From assembly GCA_900542285.1 (NCBI GenBank), contig UQNF01000003.1, positions 15,585 to 79,584 on the forward strand: 64,000 bases of DNA. The letters run 5' to 3'. The position numbers and the translations under genes are program-made. Of the stretch, positions 3,624 through 43,188 are shown piece after piece. Position 1 is the stretch's first letter; each line of letters starts with the position of its first letter. Under the pieces are notes generated by a model. The model had not been told where the DNA came from. It was given only the letters and a program-made list of their open reading frames with translations, and searched no databases. This DNA is from an uncultured Clostridium sp. (GTDB lineage Bacteria > Bacillota > Clostridia > Christensenellales > CAG-138).

Positions 3624-4359
3624 TATTCTATCAATATTCCCTGAAATGTTCTCAAGTGTCCTTTCTGCCAGCATGCTCGGGCGTGCTGCCGCAAAGGGCA
3701 TTCTTGAGTTTCACACGCATAATATCAGGGATTATTCCGAAAGCAAGCACAAGAATACCGACGATTATCCATTCGGCGGCGGTGCAGGCATGGTCATGAT
3801 GGCTCAGCCCATATTCGACTGTATTTCCGCTATCGAAAATGAAGTCGGTGATGGCAAAAGCATCCGTCGCATCGTAATGACTCCAAGGGGCAGAAGGCTT
3901 ACTCCCGAGATAGCAATGGAGCTTGCAAGGGAGGAAAACATTCTTATACTGGCTGGTCATTACGAAGGGATAGACGAAAGGGTTATGGAGCTTATCGACG
4001 ATGAGATATCTATCGGCGACTATGTTCTGACGGGAGGAGAACTCCCTGCAATGGTGCTTATTGACTGCCTGTCCAGATTCATACCCGGAGTGCTTGGCAG
4101 CAGCGAATCAACGGAGGATGAGAGCTTTTCCGGCTCGGGATTGCTCGAATATCCGCAGTACACAAGGCCTTCGGTTTTTCGAGGCAGGGAAGTTCCTGCT
4201 GTATTATTGAACGGCAATCATGCCGAGATCAATAAGTGGCGCAGACAGCAGGCACTTATAAAAACAAAAGCCATGCGCCCGGATCTCCTTGAAACCGCCG
4301 AGCTTACCAAAAAGGACATTGAGTTTCTTAAAGGCTTGGATGAGATCGAAGGAGAATAA
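3613..4359 (+). CDS. trmD: tRNA (guanine37-N1)-methyltransferase TrmD
   Basis: 248 aa. MRIDILSIFPEMF..., DDYPFGGGAGMVM, LTGGELPAMVLIDC. Overlaps the rimM stop. Confidence 0.96.
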   Translation: MRIDILSIFPEMFSSVLSASMLGRAAAKGILEFHTHNIRDYSESKHKNTDDYPFGGGAGMVMMAQPIFDCISAIENEVGDGKSIRRIVMTPRGRRLTPEIAMELAREENILILAGHYEGIDERVMELIDDEISIGDYVLTGGELPAMVLIDCLSRFIPGVLGSSESTEDESFSGSGLLEYPQYTRPSVFRGREVPAVLLNGNHAEINKWRRQQALIKTKAMRPDLLETAELTKKDIEFLKGLDEIEGE

Positions 4360-4408
4360 AAACAGCTTAAATATATTGCCTTTTGAATGAAAAAGGCGTA
4401 TCAAGCAC

Positions 4409-4437
4409 TTGAAAAACGTTAAACATCGTGCTATAAT
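4409..4437 (+). promoter_or_regulatory. Sigma-70-type promoter upstream of rplS
   Basis: TTGAAA (4409-4414), 17-nt spacer, TGC-TATAAT (extended -10; hexamer 4432-4437). Confidence 0.6.
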
Positions 4438-4505
4438 AGCATGGTTATTTGGGTGGTCCAATGATCGAGCATTCGATTAAGAACATCTGTAAAAAGGAGA
4501 TTAAT

Positions 4506-6868: not shown

Positions 6869-6897
6869 TTGACACCAATTCTTGACTGTGCTATACT
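6869..6897 (+). promoter_or_regulatory. Sigma-70-type promoter driving the cobalamin riboswitch
   Basis: TTGACA (6869-6874), 17-nt spacer, TGC-TATACT (hexamer 6892-6897). Confidence 0.65.
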
Positions 6898-6909
6898 ATG
6901 CACACAAAC

Positions 6910-7172
6910 GAAAGAACGGTTGCCAATCGGTGCAATAGCATCAAAGGCATTAATAGGGAATGCGGTTAGAATCCGCAGCAGTCCCCGCTACTGTAACTGG
7001 AGACGAAAGTTCAAACTGCCACTTCGCATTATGCGTGGGAAGGCGTAACGATTAGATTGACCCGGGAGCCAGGAGACCTGCCGTGCTTTCGCAATGGGTG
7101 GTTCTCGGGAGATAGACGGCCTAATCAATGCGTTGTTTCACACGAGAGCTGCATTATGTGCAGTTCTTTTTG
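6910..7172 (+). promoter_or_regulatory. Cobalamin (B12) riboswitch with intrinsic terminator expression platform
   Basis: AATAGGGAATGCGGTTAGAATCCGCAGCAGTCCCCGCTACTGTAA (6952-6996). GCCACT...GGGAAGGCG (7018-7044). B12 box GAGCCAGGAGACCTGCC (7066-7082). P1 pairs 6910-6919 with 7081-7090. Terminator hairpin AGCTGCA/TGCAGTT + CTTTTT at 7147-7172. Confidence 0.92.
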
Positions 7173-7262
7173 TTGTGTGCAGATTTCGTATTATTATGAC
7201 ATTTCTTCCTGCCGCCCGGGGGATGCAGACCCAAAAGTAATTATTACACGGAGGAATGTGAA

Positions 7263-8282
7263 ATGAAGAACTGCAAAAAACTTATCGCAATCATCGTGAT
7301 TGCAGCGCTTGCAATAAGCAGCGCAGCATCTATCGTGCTGGCAGAGCCTGCATATCCCGAAGTCCCTTCAGGGTATGACGGCTATGTTACCGTATCGGTA
7401 TCCGCTGATACAATCGGATGGGGCTATTTGATAGAACCAACGCTCGTTCCGATACATGAAGGCGAAAGCGTTGCCGAGGCGACCATAAGGCTGTTTGAGG
7501 CCATGGGCGTTGCCTATGAGGCAGGAACGCCGGAGTCATTCTACCTTACCGATGTGGCCTGCGATAACTGTGTTAACGGTGCTGAACCCAACGTTCCGGA
7601 TTACCTTATGGAACAGATAGAGCTTTATCCTGCTTGGGCTGAAGAGAATTTCGGCTTTGCCTATGGCGAATGGACGGGAACCGAAAGCGGAAACGGCATG
7701 CTTGGTACTGATGACTTCAGCACTTTCGGCGGTTGGATGATAGCCGAGGATGATATCGCGCTTCCTGCGACTGCCGGTGATTACAGCGCACAGTCAGGAC
7801 ATGTCTACCAGTGGGCATTCAGCGTATATGGCTGGGGCATGGATCTTGGCTGGAGCGACGGATGGGGTTCGTTCCCTGTTTTCGATAATCCTGCCGAGGG
7901 CGTGAACCGTGCTGATGCCGAGGAAGTCTATGCGCTTATCATGGCGGACGAGGAGCTTGCTGCGCTTGTCTCAGAGGATGGAATGGCATACGATGAGTTT
8001 GAAAGTCTTGTCGCAGCATTGGTCGATCTTTCATCCACTCAGGCTGAGATAGACAGCTGCCTTAATATGCTTCTCAATGCTCTTGATGGCGGTGCCCTGA
8101 TGGGCGATATCAACGGCGATGGTGTCGTTAATATGCAGGATGCTCAGTTAGCTATGCGTTATGCGATCGGCATTGCCGAACTGTCCGATGAGCAGCTGAG
8201 CATTGGCGACATTAACGGCGACGGAATTGTCAATTCATCCGACGCAACAATGATCGCACGCATTGCGCTGAATCTGATTTGA
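7263..8282 (+). CDS. Secreted DUF4430-like (transcobalamin beta-domain-like) protein with C-terminal type I dockerin
   Basis: Signal peptide MKNCKKLIAIIVIAALAISSAASIVLA. The core (VTVSVSADTIGWGYLIEP..., GGWMIAEDD..., ..SGHVYQWAFS) resembles DUF4430. The C-terminus has two DINGDG(V/I)VN..DA calcium-binding repeats, which make a dockerin. Confidence 0.7.
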   Translation: MKNCKKLIAIIVIAALAISSAASIVLAEPAYPEVPSGYDGYVTVSVSADTIGWGYLIEPTLVPIHEGESVAEATIRLFEAMGVAYEAGTPESFYLTDVACDNCVNGAEPNVPDYLMEQIELYPAWAEENFGFAYGEWTGTESGNGMLGTDDFSTFGGWMIAEDDIALPATAGDYSAQSGHVYQWAFSVYGWGMDLGWSDGWGSFPVFDNPAEGVNRADAEEVYALIMADEELAALVSEDGMAYDEFESLVAALVDLSSTQAEIDSCLNMLLNALDGGALMGDINGDGVVNMQDAQLAMRYAIGIAELSDEQLSIGDINGDGIVNSSDATMIARIALNLI

Positions 8283-8284
8283 TA

Positions 8285-9634
8285 ATGAAGAGCTTTTTCA
8301 GCAAGCTGATTTGTTGTCTGCTCCTGCTGTCGGTTTTGTTCCTGACAGCAGGAGACATTGCTGCCGGCACGGAGTATTCGGCTGATTACAATGCCGTGCT
8401 TGGCGCACTGTCATCCGGAGAGCCGCAATTCGGGTCTATCGGCGGTGAATGGAAGGTGCTTGCTCTTGCAAGAAGCGGATATTTCAGTGCAGACTCCGAA
8501 TACATGCGGTCCTATATATCGCTGATTGAAGAGCTGATACTCAGCATTGGAAGTCCAAAGCTTGATGAGCGAAAACCAAACGAGAATTCCAGACTTGTTA
8601 TCGCGCTTTCGAGCCTCGGATATGATGCAAGGAATGTTTCCGGCTTTGACCTGACCGAGCCGCTCAAGGATATCAACTACATTAAGAAGCAGGGCTTGAC
8701 GGGTGTTATTTACGCGCTCATCGCCCTGAGCTGCAATGATGAATATGCGGAAACCGACTACAAGAATACTCTTGTAGATTTTGTTCTTAATGCAGAGATA
8801 GACGGCGGTGGCTGGGCGTTGGGCGGAGGCAATCCCGACCCCGATGTTACGGCAATTGCGATAACGGCCGTTACGGGTTATACACAGGCTCGTTCTGCCA
8901 TTGAAAGAGGAATTGCAAAGCTTTCCGATATGCAGGCGGAGGACGGAACGTATTCGAGCTATGGAGCGACAAACTCCGAAAGCTGCTCTCAGGTCCTGCT
9001 TGCGCTCAGCACGCTTGGTATAGATGCAGATACGGATCAAAGGTTTATAAAAAACGGTGTATCGCTTTTATCTGCGCTGCTTTCATTCTCAACCGGCTCG
9101 GGCTTTTCTCATATGCCGAACGGCTCAACCAATCAGATGGCTTCCGAACAGGCAGCATATGCGTTGTGCGCATATGACAGGATGGTAAAAAGCAGGACGG
9201 CACTCTTTGATATGAGCGATGTGTGGCATGCTCCTGTTCAGCCGACACCGATGGCGGCAAGTACGCCAAAGCCGACACCCAAACCCACACCGACTGCTGC
9301 GCCGTCCCATTCCGAAGCTCCGACTGTTTCGGCAGTAACGACCGAACAGCCAACACAGGAGGATACCGACGCACCGGCATTGATCGAAGTACCTTCTGAC
9401 ATTTCGACGGAAGCTGCCGATACTACGCCTGATTATGAAGCTCCAACGGAGCAGGTGACGATATTTGAAATGGGCTCCGACGCCCCGACCGTTCAAACGA
9501 CACAGGACGATAGCCGGGCTCCTTCCGAAAAGCAGCGCAATGGCTTTATCAAGCTGCTTTGGCTGCTGCCCGCGGCTGTATTGGCTGCTGCATTGATCGT
9601 TATCAAACTAATTAGAGGAAAGAAAAAGGTATGA
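8285..9634 (+). CDS. Surface protein with prenyltransferase/squalene-oxidase-like alpha-toroid repeats, Pro/Thr-rich linker and C-terminal TM anchor
   Basis: Signal peptide. Repeats such as GGWALGGGNPDPDVTAIAITAV and EDGTYSSYG..NSESCSQVLLALS. PTPKPTPKPTP linker. C-terminal LLWLLPAAVLAAALIVIKLIRGKKKV. ATG at 8285 preferred over the TTG at 8279 used by the track. Confidence 0.65.
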   Translation: MKSFFSKLICCLLLLSVLFLTAGDIAAGTEYSADYNAVLGALSSGEPQFGSIGGEWKVLALARSGYFSADSEYMRSYISLIEELILSIGSPKLDERKPNENSRLVIALSSLGYDARNVSGFDLTEPLKDINYIKKQGLTGVIYALIALSCNDEYAETDYKNTLVDFVLNAEIDGGGWALGGGNPDPDVTAIAITAVTGYTQARSAIERGIAKLSDMQAEDGTYSSYGATNSESCSQVLLALSTLGIDADTDQRFIKNGVSLLSALLSFSTGSGFSHMPNGSTNQMASEQAAYALCAYDRMVKSRTALFDMSDVWHAPVQPTPMAASTPKPTPKPTPTAAPSHSEAPTVSAVTTEQPTQEDTDAPALIEVPSDISTEAADTTPDYEAPTEQVTIFEMGSDAPTVQTTQDDSRAPSEKQRNGFIKLLWLLPAAVLAAALIVIKLIRGKKKV

Positions 9635-10122
9635 AAAGAACTGCCGCAATTATCGCATTGCTTTGCCTAATAGTAACAGCGTTTTTTGGCTGCGCAGAGG
9701 GCACGGGATCGGATGCCATGCTGCACTGCACGATACTTATCGAGTGCAAAAACGCTGTCGCTTGCAATGAATTGGCAGCGGAGCAAAAGGAATTCCTCCC
9801 AAGCGACGGAATGATACTTACAAAGACGGAAATTGCTTTTACCGATGGAGAATCCGTTTACGATGTGCTCGTTCGCGAGTGCCGCGAAAGAGGAATTCAT
9901 ATGGAGGCAAGCTATGCTCCTGTCTATGACAGCGCATATATCGAAGGCATTGCAAACCTGTATGAGTTCGATTGCGGAAGCTTGAGCGGATGGACATACT
10001 GCGTTAACGGAGTTTTCCCAAACTATGGATGCAGCAATTTTAAGCTCTCGGACGGTGACGAGATAGAATTCCATTATTCCTGTGATCTGGGCAGGGATGT
10101 AGGCGCAGTATTTGAGGAGTAG
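9631..10122 (+). CDS. DUF4430-family lipoprotein
   Basis: Lipobox LIVTAFFGC. ...SGWTYCVNGVFPNYGCSNFKLSDGDEIEFHYS is the characteristic DUF4430 C-terminal motif. Confidence 0.75.
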   Translation: MKRTAAIIALLCLIVTAFFGCAEGTGSDAMLHCTILIECKNAVACNELAAEQKEFLPSDGMILTKTEIAFTDGESVYDVLVRECRERGIHMEASYAPVYDSAYIEGIANLYEFDCGSLSGWTYCVNGVFPNYGCSNFKLSDGDEIEFHYSCDLGRDVGAVFEE

Positions 10123-10126
10123 CGTG

Positions 10127-11020
10127 GTGAAAATCAGGGATACGATGAATGAGATCCATCCTTTGATCGCATTTGCATTCTTTGCATTTGTGCTTGTGAT
10201 GTCCATGCTGTTTTTGCATCCCGTTTATATAATTATTTCGCTCACAACGGGCACAGTTTGGGCGTTTTTACTTCGTGGAAAACAAACACTCAGGTTTTTG
10301 CTGACGTTCGTGCTGCCGATCACAATTCTTGTTGCAATACTGAATCCGCTGTTTAACCATAAGGGAGTTACTATCCTGTTCTATATTAGGGATAATCCGA
10401 TCACTTTGGAGTCGATGATCTATGCAGTCACATCCGCATTTATGTTTGCCTCTGTACTCATATGGTTCTCTTGCTTTAATGAAGTTATGAAAAGCGATAA
10501 GATAATCTATCTATTCGGCAAGACCATTCCGTCCGTATCGCTCATTATTACTATGGTGCTTCGATTTGTTCCGCTGTACAAGCAGCAGGCAAAAAGGATC
10601 TCTATTGCCATGCGCGCTCAGGGAATAGATGTCAGTCAGGGGAGTATCATCAAGCGTGCCAAGTACGGTCTCAGCATACTGTCGGCACTTATCACCTGGG
10701 GACTTGAAAGCTCGGTAACTACTGCGGATTCAATGCGTTCCAGAGGTCATGGGCTTCCGCACAGGACGCATTATTCGGTTTATAGATTTGACAGACGGGA
10801 TCTGATACTTTCAATACTGCTGATCATTGGCATTGCTTTTATTGGTGTATCTGCCGGAACAAATACTATCTATGCAAAGTTCTATCCGGTATTTAAGCTT
10901 AATTCATGGAATGCCGCATCGATCATCTGCACCGCAGTATATGCATTGATTCTTTTGATACCGATAATTCTTAATTTAACAGAGGCAGTATCATGGCGGC
11001 ACTTGAAATCAAAAATTTAA
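10127..11020 (+). CDS. ECF transporter transmembrane (T) component (CbiQ/EcfT family)
   Basis: Polytopic membrane protein. The A..MRAQG and ..ADSMRSRG motifs match the two Ala-Arg-Gly coupling helices of EcfT. Start is ambiguous (TTG 10112, GTG 10127, ATG 10145). Confidence 0.8.
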   Translation: MKIRDTMNEIHPLIAFAFFAFVLVMSMLFLHPVYIIISLTTGTVWAFLLRGKQTLRFLLTFVLPITILVAILNPLFNHKGVTILFYIRDNPITLESMIYAVTSAFMFASVLIWFSCFNEVMKSDKIIYLFGKTIPSVSLIITMVLRFVPLYKQQAKRISIAMRAQGIDVSQGSIIKRAKYGLSILSALITWGLESSVTTADSMRSRGHGLPHRTHYSVYRFDRRDLILSILLIIGIAFIGVSAGTNTIYAKFYPVFKLNSWNAASIICTAVYALILLIPIILNLTEAVSWRHLKSKI

Positions 11021-12648
11021 GCTTCTCATATCCGACACAGCAGGAAGGCGAGAAAGCGCTGGACGACATAAGCCTAAGCATTGCCGAGGGCGAATTTGTA
11101 CTCGTATGCGGCCCTTCCGGATGCGGCAAGTCAACCTTGCTGCGCCAGATAAAGCCTTCGCTGCGTCCGCATGGAAGATCATCGGGTTCTGTAATGCTTA
11201 ACGGAAGGAGTGTTAATGAACTCAGCTTCCGTGAGCAGACGGAACAGATAGGCTTTGTTCTGCAAGACCCGGAAATGCAGCTTGTAACCGATAAGGTTTG
11301 GCACGAGCTGGCGTTCGGACTTGAAAGCCTTGGTATGGAAAACTCCAAGATGCGGGTCCGGATCGCGGAGATTGCGAACTATTTCGGCATACAAACCTAC
11401 CTCGATGCGTCAACCGCAGAGCTTTCGGGTGGGCAGAAACAGCTTATATGCCTGGCCGGGATAATGGCAATGCAGCCCGAGCTTCTTCTTCTTGATGAGC
11501 CGACTTCGCAGTTAGATCCGATTGCTGCCGGCGAATTCTTCTCAGCCCTGAAGCGTATCAACGAAGAGACCGGAACTACTGTAGTAATCACCGAGCATAG
11601 ATATGAAAACCTGTTCTCTATTGCCGATAGGGTAGTGTTTATGGAGAACGGAAGAGTTATCGGGAACTGCAGTCCACGCAGAGCAGTTTCGGAGCTTTCA
11701 GGCAAGCCGGACTATGTTAATATCCTTCCTGCAGCCATGAGACTCTATGCCGAGACCGCCTCTTCGACAGATAATGCGCCTATAACCGTCCGCGAGGGCA
11801 GGAGCTATCTGCGCAGCATTATCGGTCAAAAGGACGAAAGCGATGAAATCGGCAAAACAAATCCCAAAAAGGAAAAAAGAGAACCGATCCTTTCCGTAAA
11901 CGACGTATGGTTCAGATATGAGCGTAGCGGCAAGGACGTGCTGAAGGGCTTGGGTGTTGATTTCTTTCGTGGCGAGCTTTCCTGCGTAATCGGAGCTAAC
12001 GGCGCCGGCAAAACTACCGCTATAATGAACGCTGCGGGACTGTATAAGCCTTATCGGGGAAAGGTCCGTTTTGACGGCAAAGACATAAGAACATACAAGA
12101 GCTCCGAATTGTACGGAAGGCGGATCGCTCTGTTGGTTCAGAACCCGGCTTGCTGCTTTGTGAAAGATACCGTGCGTGAGGAACTTGAGAGCGTCCGCAA
12201 GCACTTTGAACTGACCGGAGACAGGCTTGACGAGGTAATTGAGCTGATGGAGCTTGCGCCGATTCTTGATCGTCATCCATATGATATCAGCGGAGGAGAG
12301 CTTCAGCGTGCGGCAATTGCAAGACTGCTCCTGCCAAATCCGGAGATCATCTTTATGGACGAGGCCACAAAGGGTATGGACGCATTCTTCAAACAGCGTT
12401 TCGGTTTGCTTCTTAAGAGACTGACCGCAAACGGAACATCGATAGTCATGGTCTCGCATGATATTGAGTTTTGTGCTGAATATGCCGCCCGCTGCGCAAT
12501 GATTTTTGACGGCGGCATTACTGCTGAGGGAAGCTGCAGGGAAGTGCTGATAGACAACAGCTTCTACACCACCGCCGCCAACAGGCTGTCAAGGGGGATA
12601 GTGCATTCTGTGCTGACGGTCAATGAGCTCATTGACAGAGTAAAATGA
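10993..12648 (+). CDS. ECF transporter fused double ATPase (A-A' components)
   Basis: 551 aa with two ABC cassettes: GPSGCGKST ... LSGGQKQ ... LLLDEP, and GANGAGKTT ... ISGGELQR ... IFMDEA. Confidence 0.92.
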   Translation: MAALEIKNLSFSYPTQQEGEKALDDISLSIAEGEFVLVCGPSGCGKSTLLRQIKPSLRPHGRSSGSVMLNGRSVNELSFREQTEQIGFVLQDPEMQLVTDKVWHELAFGLESLGMENSKMRVRIAEIANYFGIQTYLDASTAELSGGQKQLICLAGIMAMQPELLLLDEPTSQLDPIAAGEFFSALKRINEETGTTVVITEHRYENLFSIADRVVFMENGRVIGNCSPRRAVSELSGKPDYVNILPAAMRLYAETASSTDNAPITVREGRSYLRSIIGQKDESDEIGKTNPKKEKREPILSVNDVWFRYERSGKDVLKGLGVDFFRGELSCVIGANGAGKTTAIMNAAGLYKPYRGKVRFDGKDIRTYKSSELYGRRIALLVQNPACCFVKDTVREELESVRKHFELTGDRLDEVIELMELAPILDRHPYDISGGELQRAAIARLLLPNPEIIFMDEATKGMDAFFKQRFGLLLKRLTANGTSIVMVSHDIEFCAEYAARCAMIFDGGITAEGSCREVLIDNSFYTTAANRLSRGIVHSVLTVNELIDRVK

Positions 12649-13406
12649 GGAAAAGAAACGAATCGGCAATTTCACATACGATAAATGAAGAGCAAGGCAA
12701 TAAGCGCCTGAGCATGCGGCATCTTATCGCCGGACTTCTGATACTCGTTTTTATTCCGACGGTCATCGCTGTCGGTATGCTTGCTTGGGGTGACAGGCAT
12801 TATTATATCGTTTCTATCATTATCATCATGGCGGCGCTCGTTCCGTTTGCGATGCTGTTCGAAAAGCGTAAGCCAAGGACGAGAGAGCTTGTGCTTATAG
12901 CCGTAATGACAACCCTTGGGGTCGTTGGACGCGCGGCATTCTATATGCTGCCACAGTTTAAGCCTGTTACCGCAATAGTGATAATAACCGGCGTTGCGCT
13001 TGGAAGTGAGGCAGGCTTTGCCACGGGCGCGCTCACTGCGTTCGTTTCGAATATTTTCTTTGGCCAGGGTCCATGGACTCCCTGGCAGATGTTTGCATTC
13101 GGAATAATCGGATTCCTTTCCGGCGTACTGTTCTCGGACAATAGCAATAAAAAAGTTAATCTGCCGCTTTTGTTAGTGTTTGGTGCGCTGGCGACATTCG
13201 CTATATACGGCGGAATAATGGATACATCATCGCTGTTTATGATGAGCTCTGAAATCTCGTGGAGCGCGCTTCTTGCTATGTTCGCATCGGGCTTTGTTAT
13301 GAACCTTATTCATGCTGCGTCGACAGTGGTGTTTCTGCTTGTGCTTTCAAAGCCTCTTCTGAAAAAGCTTCGAAGGATAAGAATAAAATACGGCATGATG
13401 GAATGA
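12645..13406 (+). CDS. ECF-type substrate-capture (S) component-like membrane protein
   Basis: 253 aa, about 6 TM helices, FFGQGPWTPWQM motif. Last gene of the riboswitch-controlled ECF cluster, overlapping the ATPase stop. Confidence 0.65.
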   Translation: MRKRNESAISHTINEEQGNKRLSMRHLIAGLLILVFIPTVIAVGMLAWGDRHYYIVSIIIIMAALVPFAMLFEKRKPRTRELVLIAVMTTLGVVGRAAFYMLPQFKPVTAIVIITGVALGSEAGFATGALTAFVSNIFFGQGPWTPWQMFAFGIIGFLSGVLFSDNSNKKVNLPLLLVFGALATFAIYGGIMDTSSLFMMSSEISWSALLAMFASGFVMNLIHAASTVVFLLVLSKPLLKKLRRIRIKYGMME

Positions 13407-13541
13407 ATTAGTCAAAAAACATTTCTATACTTTTCTTGGTTTGTCAGGCATTATGCGCTTGAAGATTTACCACTAATGGGATATAATAGAATAAACGAGA
13501 ATACCAAGCCGCTTGCGTATTCATGAAAACAGGAGGAAGCC

Positions 13542-14471
13542 ATGGAAAAAATGCTTTCATTGATCGTTCCCGTTTATAACGAGGAGGAAGTTCTTGAGGT
13601 ATCCTTTGAGAAGATGGATCAGGAAATGAAAAAGATCGGCTATCCATATGAGATAATTTATGTCAACGATGGAAGCCGTGACGGTTCAATGAAGATTCTT
13701 CGCAGAATCGCAAAGGAAAATCCGCAGGTCAAGGTACGTTCCTTCAGCAGGAACTTCGGCCATCAGACTGCCGTTACTTGCGGTATGGATGCCGCAAAGG
13801 GCGATGCGCTTATCATCATTGATGTTGACCTTCAGGATCCGCCCGAAGTCATTGAGGATATGGTAAAAGCTTGGGAAAACGGTGCGGATATCGCGTACGG
13901 AAAACGTCTCAAGAGAAAGGGAGAGACCATATTCAAAAAGTTTACCGCATTCTGCTACTATCGTCTTTTGAAGGCGATGAGTGCGAATGCCATTCCGCTC
14001 GACACCGGAGATTTCCGTTTGATAGACCGCAAGGTTGCCGATGTGTTCCTAAAGATGCGTGAACACAATCGTTTCCTCCGCGGTATGAGCGGTTGGATGG
14101 GCTTTGAAGCAGTGCCTATCGAGTATGTTCGTAATGAACGCTATGCAGGCAAGACAAAGTATACCCTCAAGAAAATGCTCCGTCTCGCTATGGACGGTAT
14201 TATCGGCTTCAGCGACAGGCCGCTGACCATTTGCGGAGCGTTTGGAGCAGGCGTGCTTGCGTTGGGTGGACTTGGACTCATCGCCTTGATAGTGCTTGCA
14301 TGTTGCGCTGTCAAGTTCCCTGCTTGGCTTTGGGCACTTGACGGCATTGTTATCCTGCAGGCAATGCTGTTCATGTTCCAGGGAATTCAGGGCTCTTATA
14401 TGAACCGTATGTATGATGAGCTTAAAGCGCGTCCGCTATACATCGTTGCGGAGGAGCTTAATATCGATTGA
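13542..14471 (+). CDS. Family 2 glycosyltransferase (GtrB / polyprenyl-phosphate sugar transferase-like)
   Basis: LSLIVPVYNEEE, YEIIYVNDGSRD, DVDLQDPPE, plus two C-terminal TM helices. Confidence 0.85.
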   Translation: MEKMLSLIVPVYNEEEVLEVSFEKMDQEMKKIGYPYEIIYVNDGSRDGSMKILRRIAKENPQVKVRSFSRNFGHQTAVTCGMDAAKGDALIIIDVDLQDPPEVIEDMVKAWENGADIAYGKRLKRKGETIFKKFTAFCYYRLLKAMSANAIPLDTGDFRLIDRKVADVFLKMREHNRFLRGMSGWMGFEAVPIEYVRNERYAGKTKYTLKKMLRLAMDGIIGFSDRPLTICGAFGAGVLALGGLGLIALIVLACCAVKFPAWLWALDGIVILQAMLFMFQGIQGSYMNRMYDELKARPLYIVAEELNID

Positions 14472-17911: not shown

Positions 17912-17988
17912 TGGTCGGGGCGAGGTGATTTGAACACCCGACCTTTTGGTCCCGAACCAAACGCGCTACCAAACTGCGCTACGCCCCG
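17912..17988 (-). tRNA. tRNA-Pro (anticodon CGG)
   Basis: rc reads CGGGGCGTAGCGCAGTTTGGTAGCGCGTTTGGTTCGGGACCAAAAGGTCGGGTGTTCAAATCACCTCGCCCCGACCA. Anticodon loop is TTCGGGA and CCA is encoded. Confidence 0.93.
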
Positions 17989-17989
17989 A

Positions 17990-18066
17990 TGGAGCCAATG
18001 AAGGGACTCGAACCCTTGACCTGAGCATTACGAATGCACTGCTCTACCAAACTGAGCTACATTGGC
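17990..18066 (-). tRNA. tRNA-Thr (anticodon CGU)
   Basis: rc reads GCCAATGTAGCTCAGTTTGGTAGAGCAGTGCATTCGTAATGCTCAGGTCAAGGGTTCGAGTCCCTTCATTGGCTCCA. Anticodon loop is TTCGTAA and CCA is encoded. Confidence 0.92.
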
Positions 18067-32929: not shown

Positions 32930-35335
32930 ATGAAGAGAATTATCAGCGTCTTACTGTCCGTCATGCTTCTCATGACTATCGTTCCGGTAGCAGCAGAAAC
33001 AAAAACGGATGCAGACACTCGCCTTATCAATCAGGGCGTACTTGAGATAGATGATGACGGCAGCGACGGCTATTCGGGAGATTATGTCGTTATCTACAAC
33101 CCGAGCACCAGCGCATATTCGGATGTAAGCACCGGCAACATGAGCGGTCTTATCGAAACCGAGATTGGTACATCGCTGATCGGCAGAATGGATGCCGTCA
33201 AGAGCGATAGGCCGTATAGGATTGATATCGATTCAGAGCTTGCAGATAAAAATGAAAAAGCTCCCGAGTTCGCATCCGAAAAATCCATTTCCTTTGAAGT
33301 AGGCGATACGCATGTTTTCAGCATCAATTCAAGCTATTGTCCGCTTCCGAGTACAAGCGTTGAGTTCGAGGTGCTTGCCAAGGGTGAACATTGCTATATT
33401 TGGACCCCGACGTCTACCGCTTCGAATGTATACCCCCTGGACAGCATCGACTCGAGCTTCGGCCAGCTCTGCGCCGATGAGTTCGATTCAAAGTTTGACC
33501 TTATGCAATCCTCCTTCGGCAACCATTCAAACGGAAGTCAGGGCGATGGCAGGCTGAACATACTGTATTACAATATTGATGACGGTTGGACTCCCGGCAA
33601 TGGTTACGTGGCAGGCTTCTTCTCCTCCGCAGATCTGGCAAGCAATGGTATGCCCATTCTGAACATCGATACCTATCCCGGCGTTTATTATGTAACTACT
33701 GATGGCGAAGTCATAGCCGATGTTACGGATACTTACGGTACCATGGTGCACGAATACCAGCATCTCATCAACTATTCGGAGTGCGGCTACAGCGATACAT
33801 GGCTCAATGAATGCATGAGTGCCGCTGCTGAGGAGATCTGTTACCCAGGCAGCAGCATAGCTCCGAGGATCCAGTCTTGGATGAACTATAAGTTCAGCGT
33901 GAACGACGATTGGCTCAATCCTCCTGCAGAGCATGAGTACCAGTCCTCCTGGAGCCTCCACAACGGCTTCTCGATGTATGATTGGAGCAACTGGCTCGAT
34001 ATGTCCGATAGGCTTGCGCTTTATGCCCAGGTATCGCTTTATGCTCAGTACATTTACACCCAGTACGGCAACTCCACCTTCCGCGCGATCCTCGAGAGGC
34101 TTGCAAACGGTCAGGAATTCCAGTATGCGTTCCAGAATGTAACCGGGCAGAGCGCATCCGAATTCACAAGGAATTTCCGTATTGCGCTTACCGCAAATGA
34201 TCCCAACGCTGAGGATGGCATCTATGGCTTCAGTATGCAGGAGGGGTATGATCCTTCACAGTATCATGACGTAGAAAACCTGTATAACTGGCTTTCTCCC
34301 GTTGTGTTCACGGGCAGCTCATGCACAATCTCGGGCGGCGGTGCAATCACCATTAAGCCCGTTGACGGCGTTTACTATCCGCCTGCAGGCGCCGGAAGCT
34401 CGCTTGAGTATTATGGCATCACGCTCGATGCTATTCCGCCTGAACCCGTTCCGCTAACCAACATCAGCATCAACCCCACTTCGGTCAGCGTTTATACCGG
34501 AGCGACCGCAAGGCTGACCGCTGTAAGGGAACCCGAAAACGCCAATAATTATGAGCTGACATGGACTTCTTCCAACAGCAGCGTTGCAACGGTTAGCGGC
34601 AACAACAGGTTTGCAACCGTTACCGGAGTATCTCAGGGTACCGCCACTATCACCTGTACCGCACATGATCTTCTAAATGACCGAACCTATACTTCAACTG
34701 CAGCGGTTACCGTATTGGGCATGCCCACCGTTAACGATGCGCTTAATGTTGAAAACGGCACGCTGGAGTTTACCACAGGCTCAACATATCCTTGGGAAGT
34801 CGTATTCACCGCTGACGGCAGGGTTGCGGCTAAGAGCAGCAACGAGGGCGTTGAAAGCTCGAGCTCAACCATTACTCTAACGGTCAATATGAATGCCGGC
34901 GACACAATGAGCTTCGATTGGAGCGTAAGCAGTGAATCCAACTATGATAAGCTCTTCTTTAAGGTAAACAATGTCGAGCAGTCCAATATCTCCGGCTCCG
35001 TTGCGTGGACCACTGTGTCCTATACGGCGGCAACCACCGGCAGCTACACCTTTACATGGGTCTATAGCAAGGATGGCAGCGTCAATCGTGACGAGGACTG
35101 TGGCTATCTCGACAATGTCAACGTGCCCGGCTATACCGGCGGCAGCGAATATGAGCTTGGCGATGTAAATATGAACGGCAGCGTAGATATGAACGATGTT
35201 ACTCTCGTTATGCGCCATGCTATGGGCCTTATCAGCCTCAGCAGCGAACAGTGTCAGCTTGCGGATTACAACCGTGACGGCAATGTCAATACGGCCGATG
35301 CAGCCGCTATAATGCGTCGTGCAATGGGAATATAA
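32930..35335 (+). CDS. Secreted HExxH zinc metallopeptidase (hyicolysin/M30-like motif context) with Big_2 domain and C-terminal dockerin
   Basis: Signal peptide. TMVHEYQHLINY (HEYQH at 33749-33763). Big_2-like segment ISINPTSVSVYTGATARLTAV...SSNSSVATVS..G.VTGVSQGTATITCTA. Dockerin GDVNMNGSVDMNDV...ADYNRDGNVNTADA. Confidence 0.7.
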   Translation: MKRIISVLLSVMLLMTIVPVAAETKTDADTRLINQGVLEIDDDGSDGYSGDYVVIYNPSTSAYSDVSTGNMSGLIETEIGTSLIGRMDAVKSDRPYRIDIDSELADKNEKAPEFASEKSISFEVGDTHVFSINSSYCPLPSTSVEFEVLAKGEHCYIWTPTSTASNVYPLDSIDSSFGQLCADEFDSKFDLMQSSFGNHSNGSQGDGRLNILYYNIDDGWTPGNGYVAGFFSSADLASNGMPILNIDTYPGVYYVTTDGEVIADVTDTYGTMVHEYQHLINYSECGYSDTWLNECMSAAAEEICYPGSSIAPRIQSWMNYKFSVNDDWLNPPAEHEYQSSWSLHNGFSMYDWSNWLDMSDRLALYAQVSLYAQYIYTQYGNSTFRAILERLANGQEFQYAFQNVTGQSASEFTRNFRIALTANDPNAEDGIYGFSMQEGYDPSQYHDVENLYNWLSPVVFTGSSCTISGGGAITIKPVDGVYYPPAGAGSSLEYYGITLDAIPPEPVPLTNISINPTSVSVYTGATARLTAVREPENANNYELTWTSSNSSVATVSGNNRFATVTGVSQGTATITCTAHDLLNDRTYTSTAAVTVLGMPTVNDALNVENGTLEFTTGSTYPWEVVFTADGRVAAKSSNEGVESSSSTITLTVNMNAGDTMSFDWSVSSESNYDKLFFKVNNVEQSNISGSVAWTTVSYTAATTGSYTFTWVYSKDGSVNRDEDCGYLDNVNVPGYTGGSEYELGDVNMNGSVDMNDVTLVMRHAMGLISLSSEQCQLADYNRDGNVNTADAAAIMRRAMGI

Positions 35336-37101: not shown

Positions 37102-37695
37102 TCAGTTACCTCCTTGTTCCGTCTTGGCGAGTGTGCCATCCGTACAAACTACTACCGGCCATACCGTTTCGACTGTCGAAGTCGGGAGCGACTGGACGGC
37201 GGAGGCGATGACCTGAAGCTCAAAATCGTACTCGTGCTCTCCATCTTTTACGGTACAGCTCTTGATAAGAATGGGAGTGTATTCGTCCGGCTTGATAAAG
37301 GTCTTGCAGTAGTAGAAACCATCAGTACCTTTGAACCAGAATTGATTGAAATCATCTCCCAAAGTGATGTTGCAATCATCGAGGTAAGCAGGCTTTGCGG
37401 CAATATTGCCCTCATCGTCCACCCATGCCGGAACCAGCGCAACGCGGATATACGCAGGAACGTTACCGGTGTTCTTTATTCTGACATTCTGCTTGGTTGT
37501 ACCATTGAACGTCTCATCAACCTGTATGGTAACTTCACCCGGAGTGAACTCGTTTACAACAGGTCCGGGAGTGCTGATAAGCCATGCCAAGCTGCCGGAT
37601 ACGGCCGCACAGGCGAGAATACAGACGCAGAATGCTATCAGAAACGGCTTGATGGACCGTTTGGGCTTGCGCGAATAGGTTTTAATCTGCCTCAT
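37102..37695 (-). CDS. SipW-class signal peptide protein, TasA-like paralog
   Basis: N-terminus ...SGSLAWLISTPGPVVNEFTPGEVTIQVDE, then VRIKNTGNVPAYIRVALV. Its start overlaps the stop of the vWA gene by 14 nt. Confidence 0.7.
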   Translation of the reverse strand: MRQIKTYSRKPKRSIKPFLIAFCVCILACAAVSGSLAWLISTPGPVVNEFTPGEVTIQVDETFNGTTKQNVRIKNTGNVPAYIRVALVPAWVDDEGNIAAKPAYLDDCNITLGDDFNQFWFKGTDGFYYCKTFIKPDEYTPILIKSCTVKDGEHEYDFELQVIASAVQSLPTSTVETVWPVVVCTDGTLAKTEQGGN

Positions 37696-40600
37696 CGGTC
37701 AAGTCCTCCTTTCCGGGGATGATAGCGGGCATTGGGCTGTATTCCGGACTGCCATTGGAGTCAAAGACGTTCGTTGCCACTGCTTCATCGCTGAGCCAGA
37801 ACTCGTTGTTAAGTCTGTTGGTCATTGTGACGATTGCTTCTTCGGGGCTTTCGGCGGGAAGCGTTGCTAAGACGCCATTTTGTTCTTCAACAAGCTCATA
37901 TCTCCAGGACCATTTGGTGTCCTCGCTGACGGTGTAGGTGCCGACAGGAAGGCCTACAATCGTACGGCTGCCTGCACCGACAATGAGAACATTGTAATCG
38001 GCTGGGCTAAGTATAGTGACCCCTTCTTTCGTAGTAAGTCCGGGGTAACTGACCGTGAAGATAAAGCTCTGTTCCGCATCCAGAAGCCGGCTGCCTTCTG
38101 CGATAGCCTTTTTAACCGTCAATGAGCAGGTGTTGACATGCAGTATGAACTTACACGGAACTGCACCTTCTGTACCGAAGTCACAGCCTGAGTGCTCACA
38201 TTCATCATGCACAAAGCTCACATGGCGATCAATATCGGTTTCGCCGATCTTTACCGATACATTGACCGGGATATCATCGGGAACGACGATATAGCCTTTC
38301 TTAATGGCATTCTCGGGCGTTGTGGCATAGTCAAGCTTAAGCGTGGGTGCGCTGCCCTCCATAGTCACCGAACTGTCCACAGTTTCGCCATGCTTCCAAG
38401 CAACGGGCTTATAGTTTGCCGTATAATCCGTATACTGTCCGCCATACCAGACCTCGCTGTCAGCGAAGGTGAGGACGGGCTTAAAGACATTGATTGTGCC
38501 TTCGTCGTAGCCTGACTGCTGAGTTGCAAGAGTCCCGGGTAGGAGATTACCATCTTTGTCATAACCGGTATCGGGCTTAGGCGATACCGTAACGGTGATG
38601 GAATATGTTGTGTCATCGGACAGTTCGTCAATGCCATCTGTGACAGCATGGCCGCTTGCATCCTTGATAACAACGCTTATGTTCACATACTCCGTTTGCC
38701 AGGTTTCAAGACCGTAGTTATTATCTGCCGCTGCCAGATTAAGTGAGACGCCTCCGACGGTGACGGTCGCATCTTCCTTGAGCTGCGCTGCGGTCAGGCC
38801 GTTCAGCAGATATACGTTCTTGTCGCTTGCGGTTACGGAAACTTCGCCAATCGGAACGTTTACCTCGGGACGCTCAAATGTCAACACCGGGTTAATGGCG
38901 CTACTATTCTCGTACACGCCGGCATTCGCATTGGTGTACACATTGTTGCCGCCAAGGAAGCCGGCTTTCGGGCTGACGGTGAATCTTATCACCAGCTTGT
39001 GGCCGTGGTAAGTAACTTCACCGTTATTGGTTACAGTTCCTACATAGTGTTCGGCAAAGTCAAAGTTGGTAACACTAACCTGACTGCCAAATATACTAGC
39101 CGTTGCGCCCATTGGATCATCTTGATTCATCGAATCAACGTTTCTTCTCCATGTGTATTTATTATCGCCGTTCTTACCGATGCAGGCATAGGTCTTAAGC
39201 GTAATATCTTCAGCCGTTGTGCCTTCCGGTAAAGTGAATGCAGGGGCGATGATGTCCCTGATGACGGTATGTTCGCTCAGGGTAGTGGAGGAACCACCGG
39301 TTTCTATCTGTTGGCTGATCTTCTCAAAGATATCGTTGAGAGCATCAGCGTCGCCTGCGGAAAGATAGTAGCTTGGGCTCTGCACATTACCGTTGTTGGA
39401 AGACAGATTCTGCATGAACCAGTTGGCTTTTTGGGTATCGTTTCCGCTTGAGCTACCTGCGCTTGTTGCATCTGCACCATCAAATATACCAACGGTATAA
39501 ACAGTTGCACCATAGGTGCTTTTTGCAGTGCTTCCTTGCGATATGGCAGCATTTCCTACGGTGCTGTTATATCTTCCGGTGCCAGGCAAGCCATCAGTGA
39601 AAACGATTACGACACGATTTCGCTTTGTCCCTTCTTCAATCTTGTTGACATTCAGAATACCGTTTGCCATCTCCATTCCCAGATCAGTGAAGGTTCCGCC
39701 ATATGCGTCCAAAGCTTTAATTGAGTTCGCAATATTGTTTTTCCCTATTGATGTGTTCATGCTTTGCAACGCATTGCTATACTGAGCAATTGCAGAGTTA
39801 CCATAAGTGTATTGTGTAGCACCGACAAATACTTCTGTGTTTTCATATTTGTCTTCATTGTATTCTGTTCCACTTGATGCAAAGCCAACAACTGCAATAC
39901 GGTGATTAACATCGTCTTCCGTTCCCATCTGACCATCCTTGCCCTTTGCTTTCACAGCTACCGCATTGGCAAATGCAGTTACAGCATTCTTCAATGCTTC
40001 AAGGCGAGTGGTTTCCACAGCAGTCCTCAGATATAGTTTATTATGGATTTCTGGAACAGTGTCCGGTCTATCTGATTCATATGAACCTTCTGACCATGAA
40101 TATGTATACTTAAAGTATCCTCTAATAAGGAAAACAGTCCAAATCCAATCCCTGCTTACTGATACCTGAGCATAACTACCATCATCAAGCTTATAAAAGA
40201 GATTATTTTGCTGATAGTAGTAGTCCGAGTTCGTCATATCGAAATAACTATCATATTTATAACTGCTGGTGAAGCTATCAGCCATACTTCCCGACTGGTC
40301 AAGCACCAGAACGATATCGGTGGGGATATACTCCGTAACCTCGGTGATGACCTTTTCACCGGTTGCATAGGCCTCCAGAGTGATGGTATAGGTACCGTCT
40401 CCGTTCGCAACGGCGTTTTTCGTTATCTCCATACCGCTGTCACCATTTCCGCTGCCCGTATCGTCGCCGGATACGGATGCGCCGCGAGTGGGCGAGCCGC
40501 AAACCGGGTCGAGCAGGGGAGCGACATTGGTGAAGTTGACAGTTGTATAAACATACTCAAGGTCGCCATCCTCTTCGGCGGCGGCGATAAGCTCGTTTAT

Positions 40601-40936
40601 ATGCTCTTCAAGCGCGGCATACTGCTCCTCGGTGAGAGAATCGATAAATGCGCTCAGCTGTTCGTCGGTGAGCCCTTCAAGCAGCGCGTGAGCCTCCGCA
40701 AAGGTCGCGGCTGCCATAAGGTCATTGTACAGTGCGGCATAATCGGGAGCTTCCACCGGGGTATCGGTATCGGACGGAGCGGGAGTTACTGACGGTGCAG
40801 AGGTTGGACTGCCCGAATTCGCTTGGCTGCCCATATTGGCGATGCCGCCTTCGTTCAGCGCGACAATGGCTGAGCCCATGGGCGTAATAAGGCATAAGCA
40901 GAGAAGCAGTGACAATAGCCCTTTAAGTATCTTCAT
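37682..40936 (-). CDS. Large secreted vWA (MIDAS) domain protein, adhesin-like, no recognisable cell-wall anchor
   Basis: 1084 aa. Signal peptide. DIVLVLDQSGSM (DxSxS at 40286-40300) and VVIVFTDGLPG. C-terminal beta-rich modules (e.g. GTYTVSEDTKWSWRYEL). Ends ...GKEDLTDEAD with no LPxTG or TM segment. Confidence 0.8.
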   Translation of the reverse strand: MKILKGLLSLLLCLCLITPMGSAIVALNEGGIANMGSQANSGSPTSAPSVTPAPSDTDTPVEAPDYAALYNDLMAAATFAEAHALLEGLTDEQLSAFIDSLTEEQYAALEEHINELIAAAEEDGDLEYVYTTVNFTNVAPLLDPVCGSPTRGASVSGDDTGSGNGDSGMEITKNAVANGDGTYTITLEAYATGEKVITEVTEYIPTDIVLVLDQSGSMADSFTSSYKYDSYFDMTNSDYYYQQNNLFYKLDDGSYAQVSVSRDWIWTVFLIRGYFKYTYSWSEGSYESDRPDTVPEIHNKLYLRTAVETTRLEALKNAVTAFANAVAVKAKGKDGQMGTEDDVNHRIAVVGFASSGTEYNEDKYENTEVFVGATQYTYGNSAIAQYSNALQSMNTSIGKNNIANSIKALDAYGGTFTDLGMEMANGILNVNKIEEGTKRNRVVIVFTDGLPGTGRYNSTVGNAAISQGSTAKSTYGATVYTVGIFDGADATSAGSSSGNDTQKANWFMQNLSSNNGNVQSPSYYLSAGDADALNDIFEKISQQIETGGSSTTLSEHTVIRDIIAPAFTLPEGTTAEDITLKTYACIGKNGDNKYTWRRNVDSMNQDDPMGATASIFGSQVSVTNFDFAEHYVGTVTNNGEVTYHGHKLVIRFTVSPKAGFLGGNNVYTNANAGVYENSSAINPVLTFERPEVNVPIGEVSVTASDKNVYLLNGLTAAQLKEDATVTVGGVSLNLAAADNNYGLETWQTEYVNISVVIKDASGHAVTDGIDELSDDTTYSITVTVSPKPDTGYDKDGNLLPGTLATQQSGYDEGTINVFKPVLTFADSEVWYGGQYTDYTANYKPVAWKHGETVDSSVTMEGSAPTLKLDYATTPENAIKKGYIVVPDDIPVNVSVKIGETDIDRHVSFVHDECEHSGCDFGTEGAVPCKFILHVNTCSLTVKKAIAEGSRLLDAEQSFIFTVSYPGLTTKEGVTILSPADYNVLIVGAGSRTIVGLPVGTYTVSEDTKWSWRYELVEEQNGVLATLPAESPEEAIVTMTNRLNNEFWLSDEAVATNVFDSNGSPEYSPMPAIIPGKEDLTDEAD

Positions 40937-40975
40937 GTGCTATACCTCCTTTTCTAAAGATTTTTTGTGAAATGC

Positions 40976-41527
40976 TCACTCTGCGGGCCAGCCCTGCGCA
41001 GCCAGAACGGTTGCGCCGTTGTTTGCATACTGTACAGCCTCTGCGTCAACATCGATGCTCAGAACCGCATCCATATAGGAGTTGCCAAGGCTGATGTCGA
41101 ATGCTACGCTTGAGAACAGCTCGTTGGTGAAGGCACCGCCGTCAACGGGGCTGTTGTAGTAATAGTAGCCGTCCGAATAGGTCCAATCGGTGGTGTTGTA
41201 ATCAAGGGTGATGTCGTCGGTTGACAGCGCCTGCTGGTTGGCATCGGTGCAGCTCATGGTGACCTTTACACGGATCCATGCGGTATTGTCGCCGGTGTTC
41301 TCAATCTTAACGACCTTTGCGATGGTGTCGCCGGGCATAACACCGGTCTGATCCACAAAGGGATCGCCGTTTTCGTCGGTCTCATGGATAGCTATCCCGA
41401 GATTGCCGGCGGTTATCTGATTGTTTGCAGTATCCTGCGCGGTGAAGTAGGCGAGGGAGCCGAGCGCAAGGATGGATACGCAGGCGATAATTGCCGCAAG
41501 AATCGTAATCTTCTTCTTGATATTCAT
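40976..41527 (-). CDS. TasA/camelysin (peptidase M73-like) family protein with SipW-class signal peptide
   Basis: ...LGSLAYFTAQDTANNQITAGNLGIAIHE..., GVMPGDTIAKVVKIENTGDNTAWIRVKV. Confidence 0.8.
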   Translation of the reverse strand: MNIKKKITILAAIIACVSILALGSLAYFTAQDTANNQITAGNLGIAIHETDENGDPFVDQTGVMPGDTIAKVVKIENTGDNTAWIRVKVTMSCTDANQQALSTDDITLDYNTTDWTYSDGYYYYNSPVDGGAFTNELFSSVAFDISLGNSYMDAVLSIDVDAEAVQYANNGATVLAAQGWPAE

Positions 41528-41646
41528 ATTCTTTGCCTTTCTTTTTTAATTTATTTGCTATTTGCGGCTTTTGTGCCGCTGCTCACATATACCGCCACCC
41601 CGGCCGCTTTTGCGGCCAGGGCAACGTTAGTGAGGTGGAGGGATTA

Positions 41647-42426: not shown

Positions 42427-42495
42427 AAAACAAATTCTCCTTAATAATTTATTGTTTTTGTTTCTTTGTTAGTTGGTTGCTGCGTGATCGATAAA

Positions 42496-43137: not shown

Positions 43138-43188
43138 GTTCTTCCTTTCCGGGCGCGCTCTGCGGCGCCCATGCATTATATATGGGAT

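Follow-up and report, generated by a model that had tools for sequence, protein, structure and literature searches.

A Cobalamin Riboswitch-Controlled Operon from an Uncultured Clostridium Encodes Separate Transcobalamin-Like Surface Proteins and a CbrT-Type ECF Transporter with a Predicted Role in Corrinoid Scavenging

An operon of six genes led by a cobalamin riboswitch occupies positions 6869–13406 (+ strand) of a 64,000-nt stretch of DNA from an uncultured Clostridium sp. (assembly GCA_900542285.1, contig UQNF01000003.1; this whole stretch is referred to below as the window, and coordinates are positions within it). Three of the encoded proteins, P1–P3, are predicted to be extracytoplasmic and to present the folds of the two halves of transcobalamin on separate chains, and the other three, P4–P6, form an energy-coupling factor (ECF) transporter module. 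Our overall reading, to which we assign a probability of about 75%, is that the operon serves the B12-repressed scavenging and import of corrinoids, i.e. cobalamin and probably also cobinamide and analogues. The operon very likely encodes a B12-regulated corrinoid importer, and P1–P3 are probably its corrinoid-binding capture proteins, a property that we infer for them. A prior interpretation made from the letters of the DNA alone (the sequence-only reading) had proposed a "split transcobalamin" arrangement ahead of a dedicated ECF transporter, and the evidence for and against its elements is considered here together with rival explanations. Every element that it described is found at the coordinates given, and the analysis supports its interpretation, with some corrections of detail.

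The leader element at 6903–7099 (+) is assigned as a bona fide cobalamin riboswitch on the basis of an Rfam covariance search, in which RF00174 aligns over its full length (model positions 1–189 of 189) with a score of 115.3 bits against a gathering score of 31.5 (E 3.5e-28); the aptamer is of the long (class I-like) form with a peripheral extension. A home-built covariance model (R1), made from 12 elements, scores the same element at 169 bits. Six nucleotides 5′ of the aptamer is a sigma-70-type promoter-like site, recognized by consensus match only (TTGACA, a 17-nt spacer, and a TG-extended TATACT; 6869–6897, +), which has 11 of 12 consensus matches and the top score within the region. On the 3′ side, a motif scan and RNA folding identify an intrinsic-terminator-like hairpin with a U-rich tract (7144–7180, +), comprising an 11-bp stem and a 3-nt loop at 7144–7168 followed by a T-run, which is the presumed expression platform; a similar hairpin with a T-run is present 3′ of the riboswitch in four related loci (L001, L004, L007, and L010). 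Across the region the numbers of promoter- and terminator-like sites are not above those in shuffled sequence, and these two sites take their weight only from their positions flanking the riboswitch. The start codon of P1 (ATG, 7263) lies 164 nt beyond the aptamer and is preceded, at a distance of 9 nt, by a GGAGGA ribosome-binding site. The textbook cobalamin riboswitch of the sequence-only reading is thus borne out by the Rfam match over the leader, and the terminator platform that it described would correspond to the hairpin and T-run.

Downstream of the leader, the list of open reading frames (ORFs) contains six + strand ORFs between 7263 and 13406 whose stops and starts overlap or abut, in agreement with the claim of six riboswitch-controlled genes. 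Public gene calls for the same genes (GCA_900753805.1; metagenome-assembled genomes, MAGs, labelled “Eubacteriales,” “Christensenellales,” or “Clostridium sp.”) start P2 from the ATG at 8285 and EcfT from the ATG at 10145.

The three promoter-distal genes encode the transporter, all of whose claimed components were matched by family models. P4 (10145–11020, +; 291 residues, with an alternative TTG start at 10112) is an EcfT coupling subunit of the CbiQ family (PF02361, 29.2 bits versus 25). P5 (10993–12648, +; 551 residues) is a fused EcfA-EcfA′ double ATPase with two ABC_tran domains, which exceeds the cutoff of the TIGR04520 ECF_ATPase_1 equivalog model (320.9 versus 315) and also matches the TIGR01166 cbiO subfamily. 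P6 (12645–13406, +; 253 residues) is a CbrT-like S component, which scores 44.6 bits with PF07155 (cutoff 26.7) and 41.3 bits with PF12822 (cutoff 30.7). In a phmmer search of PDB sequences the sole match to P6 is CbrT of Lactobacillus delbrueckii (6FNP_A; E 1.3e-12, with residues 74–251 of P6 aligned to residues 4–178 of the 182-residue chain), and no other solved S component is retrieved at E ≤ 1. Among NCBIfam models no CbrT-specific model is matched, and the FolT family (25.3 bits, cutoff 60) and RibU (18.2 bits, cutoff 99) score below their cutoffs. P6 has an N-terminal extension of ~70 residues (12645–12860, +) with hydrophobic helices at residues 27–45 and 54–72; the extension is absent from the solved 182-residue CbrT but is conserved among relatives, as tblastn matches start near residues 2–20 in most of the related loci. 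By these family assignments, P4–P6 constitute a dedicated (group I) ECF module with a CbrT homologue, which we take to be akin to the predicted CbrTUV type.

The biochemical precedent for this module is ECF-CbrT of L. delbrueckii (PDB 6FNP), which carries cobalamin and cobinamide into proteoliposomes in an ATP-dependent manner, and for which hemin does not compete with B12 (Santos et al., 2018; PMC5997447). The two systems have homologous CbrT, EcfT, and EcfA/A′ components. However, ECF-CbrT is of group II, with a shared module, a lone cbrT gene, and no extracellular helpers, whereas in the window the module is of group I with fused ATPases, CbrT has its N-terminal extension, and the transporter is encoded together with three extracytoplasmic proteins in one riboswitch-controlled operon.

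Of the three extracytoplasmic proteins, P3 (9631–10122, +; 163 residues) is the most readily classified. It has a lipoprotein-type signal (…AFFGC, the lipobox being read from the sequence) and a canonical DUF4430/SLBB domain at residues 73–150 (PF14478, 58.5 bits versus 23.8), and is therefore the DUF4430 lipoprotein that had been claimed. P1 (7263–8282, +; 339 residues), described in the sequence-only reading as a DUF4430-like secreted protein, is more divergent: PF14478 gives no match at E ≤ 0.01, and neither Pfam nor NCBIfam models match its N-terminal region. The relationship emerges instead from profile-profile comparison and from the predicted fold. The P1 family aligns with the P3 family (57 P3-type sequences) by hhalign with a probability of 97.7% (E 1.5e-12), with an insert of ~46 residues in the P1 SLBB domain, and an AlphaFold2 (AF2) model of P1 made from 25 homologues (pLDDT 86.9) has as its best Foldseek matches the transcobalamin beta domain structures 5no0 and 5np4 (TM 0.71–0.72), followed by full-length transcobalamin, intrinsic factor, haptocorrin, and the Ruminococcus gnavus DUF4430 structure 3u7z (all with a Foldseek probability of 1.0). 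The SLBB (transcobalamin beta-domain-like) fold covers residues ~38–190 (7374–7832, +).

The description of P1 also overlooked its C-terminal domain, a type I dockerin (8103–8279, +) with two GDINGDG(V/I)VN calcium-binding repeats, which matches PF00404 (41.3 bits versus a gathering score of 22.9) and dockerins in the PDB both by sequence (down to E 2.7e-9) and by structure (Foldseek root-mean-square deviation ~1 Å). Taken together, profile comparison and modelling define P1 as a signal peptide followed by a divergent SLBB/DUF4430 domain, a helical region, and a type I dockerin. No dedicated Pfam model exists for the N-terminal module of ~230 residues (7347–8087, +), a “long SLBB” made up of the SLBB domain with its insert and a helical bundle. 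A search of 1.84 billion cluster representatives finds the module in 603 at E ≤ 1e-3, of which 114 reach E ≤ 1e-10, in host proteins of 230–2750 residues, and in distant members the Pfam DUF4430 model sees just the final ~40 residues.

P2 (8285–9634, +; 449 residues, or 451 from an alternative TTG start at 8279) comprises a signal peptide, an alpha6/alpha6 toroid domain of ~290 residues (8366–9238, +), a Pro/Thr/Ser-rich stalk of ~100 residues, and a C-terminal membrane anchor helix (9548–9604, +; hydropathy 2.49, residues 424–442 in the numbering from the TTG start) followed by a KKK tail. There is no LPXTG motif in the sequence, and anchoring is by the transmembrane helix. With Pfam, P2 gives a sub-threshold SQHop_cyclase_C score (17 bits versus 26.1) and no match to PF00432, and phmmer searches of PDB sequences with P2 (and with P3) return nothing meaningful. 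A profile of 34 P2 family sequences reaches squalene-hopene cyclase at E 6e-14, so that the homology of P2 to the class II terpene cyclase/prenyltransferase beta superfamily is real; transcobalamin, intrinsic factor, and haptocorrin are not retrieved from the PDB by phmmer or by the family profile. The AF2 model (pLDDT 95.1, pTM 0.93) is an alpha/alpha toroid, for which Foldseek ranks type II terpene cyclases best and transcobalamin fourth, with prenyltransferase beta subunits also among the matches; superimposed on the alpha domains of the B12 carriers it gives TMq values of 0.56–0.63 (up to 0.63 for transcobalamin and 0.59 for intrinsic factor). Family profile and model thus agree on the surface-anchored alpha/alpha toroid of the sequence-only reading, but a transcobalamin-like origin cannot be told from a cyclase-like one by the modelled fold. 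As judged from these folds and families and from the export signals, the two halves of transcobalamin would occur here as separate extracytoplasmic chains, as had been proposed.

Conservation of gene order and of regulation provides a second line of evidence. One genome per GTDB species was scanned with the toroid alignment, giving at least 580 relatives, and 78 loci were studied in detail, which span Ruminococcus (including R. bromii ATCC 27255), Lachnospiraceae, Oscillospiraceae, Christensenellales-like MAGs, Terrisporobacter, Lutispora, and Paenibacillus. Where at least 7 kb of downstream sequence is available, genes for a DUF4430 protein, EcfT, the ATPase, and CbrT are present 3′ of the toroid gene in 43 of 53 loci, with the P3-type gene directly 5′ of that for EcfT. 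Where at least 2.5 kb of upstream sequence is available, a same-strand match to the home-built riboswitch model is found in 43 of 56 loci (35 of them scoring ≥ 30 bits), these counts being approximate and inclusive of divergent variants. The matches are mostly 1.0–1.4 kb 5′ of the toroid gene, a distance that leaves room for one upstream SLBB gene. At Rfam’s own threshold a riboswitch is present in six of the eight closest loci, with none in L009 or L046; the home-built model finds none in L009 or L084. The operon arrangement, including the riboswitch, is therefore kept across many Clostridia and some Bacilli.

Fusions between the components provide a third. In R. bromii ATCC 27255 (L046, 6866–13523) a short-form riboswitch-like element, in which the peripheral extension is deleted (27 bits, sub-threshold; E 7e-5 in a local search), is followed by genes for a 633-residue DUF4430-toroid-dockerin protein, a 322-residue DUF4430 protein, EcfT, EcfAA′, and CbrT, and versions of the fused protein with 603–620 residues occur in many uncultured Ruminococcus. 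Terrisporobacter mayombei (L042, 7137–11627) encodes a 1496-residue surface protein with P1-like SLBB and toroid units, and Lutispora thermophila (L065, 6264–11945) an 1893-residue protein with two SLBB-toroid pairs in one chain, directly 5′ of DUF4430-EcfT-EcfAA′-CbrT genes. Protein P0190 has a toroid followed by DUF4430, which is the domain order of transcobalamin, and further SLBB-toroid fusions are found in P0258, P0264, and P0295. The fusions therefore lend Rosetta-stone support to the “split transcobalamin” idea. Surface anchors are interchangeable among the relatives, some of which have a transmembrane helix or a lipid anchor and others SLH domains, a dockerin, or a dockerin together with a cohesin.

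Variations in layout were also observed. A second EcfT gene follows that for CbrT in L027, L036, L060, and L064, and the order of the transporter genes is AA′-S-T in L033 and L061. Two close relatives, L009 and L011, have P1-P2-P3 genes with no adjacent ECF genes downstream. In L002 an extra gene (3724–4494, + strand of that locus) stands between the toroid and DUF4430 genes; its product lacks any folded domain and consists of a signal/anchor helix, a Pro/Thr-rich stalk of ~200 residues, and a transmembrane helix at the C terminus.

The cyclase-like features of P2 bear on an alternative that we regard as unlikely, namely that the ECF module imports B12 but P1–P3 do not bind it, being envelope or scaffold components, receptors, enzymes of extracellular corrinoid remodelling or deprotection, or, in the case of the toroid, a cyclase- or prenyltransferase-like protein. 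Type II terpene cyclases head the Foldseek list, the family profile reaches squalene-hopene cyclase, and the NCBI label for relatives is “terpene cyclase/mutase family.” A DPDxTA motif that is (near-)invariant across the toroid family (DPDVTA in P2, residues ~187–193; 8840–8860, +) aligns with the catalytic DxDDTA of squalene-hopene cyclase. However, DPDxTA has another residue in place of the third Asp of DxDDTA, and the profile segment that contains it also aligns to several cyclase repeats without catalytic function; the motif could be either a structural relic or a site of ligand contact. P1, P2, and P3 each carry an export signal and a surface anchor, whereas isoprenoid diphosphate substrates are cytoplasmic. 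Fusions of the toroid with SLBB domains recur, solved relatives of these domains bind B12, and the toroid is in tight synteny with a B12 riboswitch and CbrT. On the grounds of the export signals, the degenerate DxDD motif, the SLBB fusions, and the B12 context, a terpene cyclase or prenyltransferase function for the toroid was rejected as the principal interpretation.

The kind of system described here is not new. Burroughs, Balaji, Iyer, and Aravind defined the SLBB superfamily and described SLBB proteins, secreted or at the cell surface and in many cases joined to toroids, in operons with a second SLBB paralogue and CbiO/CbiQ genes, in hosts without B12 synthesis; B12 scavenging was predicted, as was a bacterial origin of animal transcobalamin (Burroughs et al., 2007; PMC1796856). 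The window operon fits this description, and the prediction was made independently of the window. That study is older than the recognition of ECF transporters and CbrT and does not mention riboswitch control, and the anchors that it lists are Ig, FIVAR, fasciclin, beta-propeller, and sortase types, with no dockerin or cohesin, unlike P1; the window places the toroid and each SLBB domain on a chain of its own. A cluster in Latilactobacillus sakei, lsa1836–1840, was subsequently drawn as an ECF transporter with separate alpha- and beta-transcobalamin-like subunits and assigned to heme (Verplaetse et al., 2019; bioRxiv 10.1101/864751). The “split transcobalamin” idea, though supported by folds, conserved synteny, and fusions, thus predates the sequence-only reading in both of these works.

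The L. sakei assignment raises a possibility that the sequence-only reading did not consider, that the transcobalamin-like pair binds heme (iron-porphyrin) and the ECF module imports it. By its published description the L. sakei cluster has the same five core genes as the window, i.e. those for the S component, fused AA′, T, and secreted beta- and alpha-like subunits, and its deletion lowered a heme-sensor signal about 2-fold and 57Fe-heme 5- to 8-fold at 5–40 μM hemin, with restoration on complementation (bioRxiv 10.1101/864751). The differences are that no riboswitch is reported for the L. sakei cluster, whereas that of the window is clear, and that the window has a third extracellular component, P1, with a long-form SLBB and a dockerin, and a toroid with a stalk and a transmembrane anchor. 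Heme uptake as the function of the window operon seems to us rather improbable. A cobalamin riboswitch leads the operon here and in most relatives, which fits B12 homeostasis and not that of iron or heme, and the S component matches CbrT, for which hemin is no competitor in ECF-CbrT (PMC5997447). The L. sakei phenotype was seen only at micromolar hemin (1–40 μM), and the heme assignment drew on this and on docking, in a study whose scope did not extend to B12 or riboswitches; low-affinity, promiscuous heme uptake could accompany a primary corrinoid role. Least probable is that the operon encodes a CbiMNQO-type importer for cobalt (or nickel), regulated by the riboswitch since cobalt feeds B12 synthesis: P4 matches PF02361 (“Cobalt transport protein”) and P5 TIGR01166 cbiO, and cobalamin riboswitches control cbiMNQO operons in other Clostridia (PMC11477304), but CbiM and CbiN are absent from the operon, the S component falls in vitamin-type ECF families with a specific match to CbrT, CbiQ and CbiO models match ECF T and A subunits generically, and three large extracellular SLBB/toroid proteins would have no role in metal-ion uptake, so that this candidate was rejected.

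Several observations weigh against the assignment of the operon to corrinoid capture and import. In the leader fold, anti-terminator pairing and switching helices are not discerned, and the platform is putative. With the home-built model, 13 of the 56 loci have no riboswitch match, a shortfall that may reflect the sensitivity of the model because the R. bromii element falls below the Rfam threshold. P2 has no match to Cobalamin_bind (PF01122) at E ≤ 0.01 with Pfam, and by Foldseek its fold matches terpene cyclases at least as well as transcobalamin. Deletion of the L. sakei cluster cut the accumulation of heme and not of B12, B12 transport having been outside the scope of that study (bioRxiv 10.1101/864751). 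ECF-CbrT of L. delbrueckii moves B12 in proteoliposomes without accessory proteins (PMC5997447), which is also what a non-binding role of P1–P3 would allow; because this transporter works without helpers in vitro, P1–P3 are not mechanistically required for transport. Finally, searches for a cohesin to partner P1 gave none in the operon, among the other large secreted ORFs of the window that were tested, in the longer toroid and DUF4430 genes of L002 and L003, or in the 322-residue DUF4430 protein of R. bromii.

Under the corrinoid scavenging reading, the operon would work as follows. At low intracellular adenosylcobalamin the riboswitch would permit transcriptional read-through, and P1–P3 would be placed at different depths of the envelope, with P1 docked on a cohesin-bearing scaffold, P2 held on its ~100-residue stalk, and P3 lipid-anchored at the membrane. 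A corrinoid would be sandwiched by the toroid and an SLBB domain in the manner of the alpha and beta domains of transcobalamin, here on separate chains. The three proteins would concentrate the vitamin and pass it to CbrT, and EcfT and EcfAA′ would drive CbrT to move the corrinoid across the membrane at the expense of ATP. As B12 rises the riboswitch would close, with termination at about 7170.

A more specific and decidedly tentative proposal concerns the dockerin of P1, which might plug a corrinoid-binding SLBB domain into a cohesin scaffold, with P1 outermost, then P2 and P3, as a three-tier, non-covalent “split transcobalamin” relay feeding ECF-CbrT. We consider this possible because dockerins recur in the family, on the upstream SLBB protein in 11 of the 78 loci (the window’s closest relatives) and on the toroid in 14, and because cohesin and dockerin modules also occur together in single chains: P0269 is an SLBB-cohesin-dockerin protein, so that cohesin modules exist within the protein family, and in L084 (JGI metagenome 3300042601, 8001–14211) P0295, an SLBB-toroid-cohesin-dockerin protein, is followed by SLBB-SLH, toroid-SLH, and small DUF4430 proteins, a split triad like that of the window but with SLH anchors. 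Elsewhere in the window (32930–35335, +) there is a second dockerin-bearing secreted protein, of 801 residues with Big_2 and type I dockerin domains, and the organism would therefore use cohesin-dockerin attachment more generally.

A dockerin-bearing relative may already have been catalogued. Among 26 dockerin proteins of R. bromii, Ze et al. (2015; PMC4611034) list one as a “putative terpene cyclase,” with no link to B12; this is probably the 633-residue fusion described above, which would then be mis-annotated. The R. bromii protein has SLBB, toroid, and dockerin on one chain, whereas the window has a membrane-anchored toroid and carries the dockerin on an SLBB protein apart from it. In a literature library that lacks most subscription journals, we found no report of corrinoid binding by these bacterial SLBB and toroid proteins, and no link between dockerins and B12 capture. 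What is new in the window is the dockerin-tethered, long-form SLBB as a third protein, and the stalked, membrane-anchored toroid.

In transcobalamin, intrinsic factor, and haptocorrin, B12 is held between an alpha6/alpha6 toroid and an SLBB beta domain, and both folds are predicted in the window, with sequence identities of 12–17% between P1 or P2 and the mammalian carriers. The window proteins differ from these carriers in being separate, surface-tethered chains, in having two SLBB paralogues per toroid, and in their predicted delivery to an ECF transporter, whereas the mammalian carriers deliver to an endocytic receptor. BtuG and BtuH of Bacteroides are reportedly surface corrinoid binders under B12 riboswitch control that act ahead of a membrane transporter, and would thus be functional analogues. 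BtuG, a beta-propeller, and BtuH have folds unrelated to those of P1–P3, and both are outer-membrane lipoproteins that feed the TonB-dependent BtuB in a Gram-negative envelope; to our knowledge neither has homology to P1–P3.

The operon appears to end with P6: the gene that comes next, for a family 2 glycosyltransferase (13542), is equipped with a separate promoter-like site and would probably be transcribed as its own unit. Further along the window, the products of a cluster at 37682–43797 (−) include a SipW-like signal peptidase of family S26, three small secreted proteins that resemble camelysin/TasA and match one another at the N terminus, and a VWA-domain protein of 1084 residues; the cluster has the appearance of a SipW-dependent operon for a surface fibre or a pilus-type structure. 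Two tRNA genes lie side by side at 17915–18066 (−).

Competition for corrinoids is far less understood in Gram-positive gut anaerobes than in Bacteroides with its BtuB/BtuG/BtuH system. The operon type described here is very common, with its 580 or more toroid relatives including R. bromii, Lachnospiraceae, and Oscillospiraceae, and the public labels of these relatives are “hypothetical protein,” “terpene cyclase/mutase family,” or “dockerin type I repeat-containing protein”; as a result, metabolic reconstructions of microbiomes probably miss part of the capacity for B12 uptake. Corrinoid binding by these proteins, if shown, would confirm the prediction of 2007 and clarify the heme-versus-B12 assignment of the L. 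sakei cluster, would support a bacterial origin of the animal B12 carriers, and would explain the presence of extracellular binders beside an otherwise self-sufficient ECF transporter. The novelty of the dockerin tether is modest and would lie in a role for cohesin-dockerin assemblies beyond carbohydrates; if the docking of P1 proposed above is true, vitamin scavenging would be built into the cellulosome- or amylosome-type assemblies of gut Clostridia.

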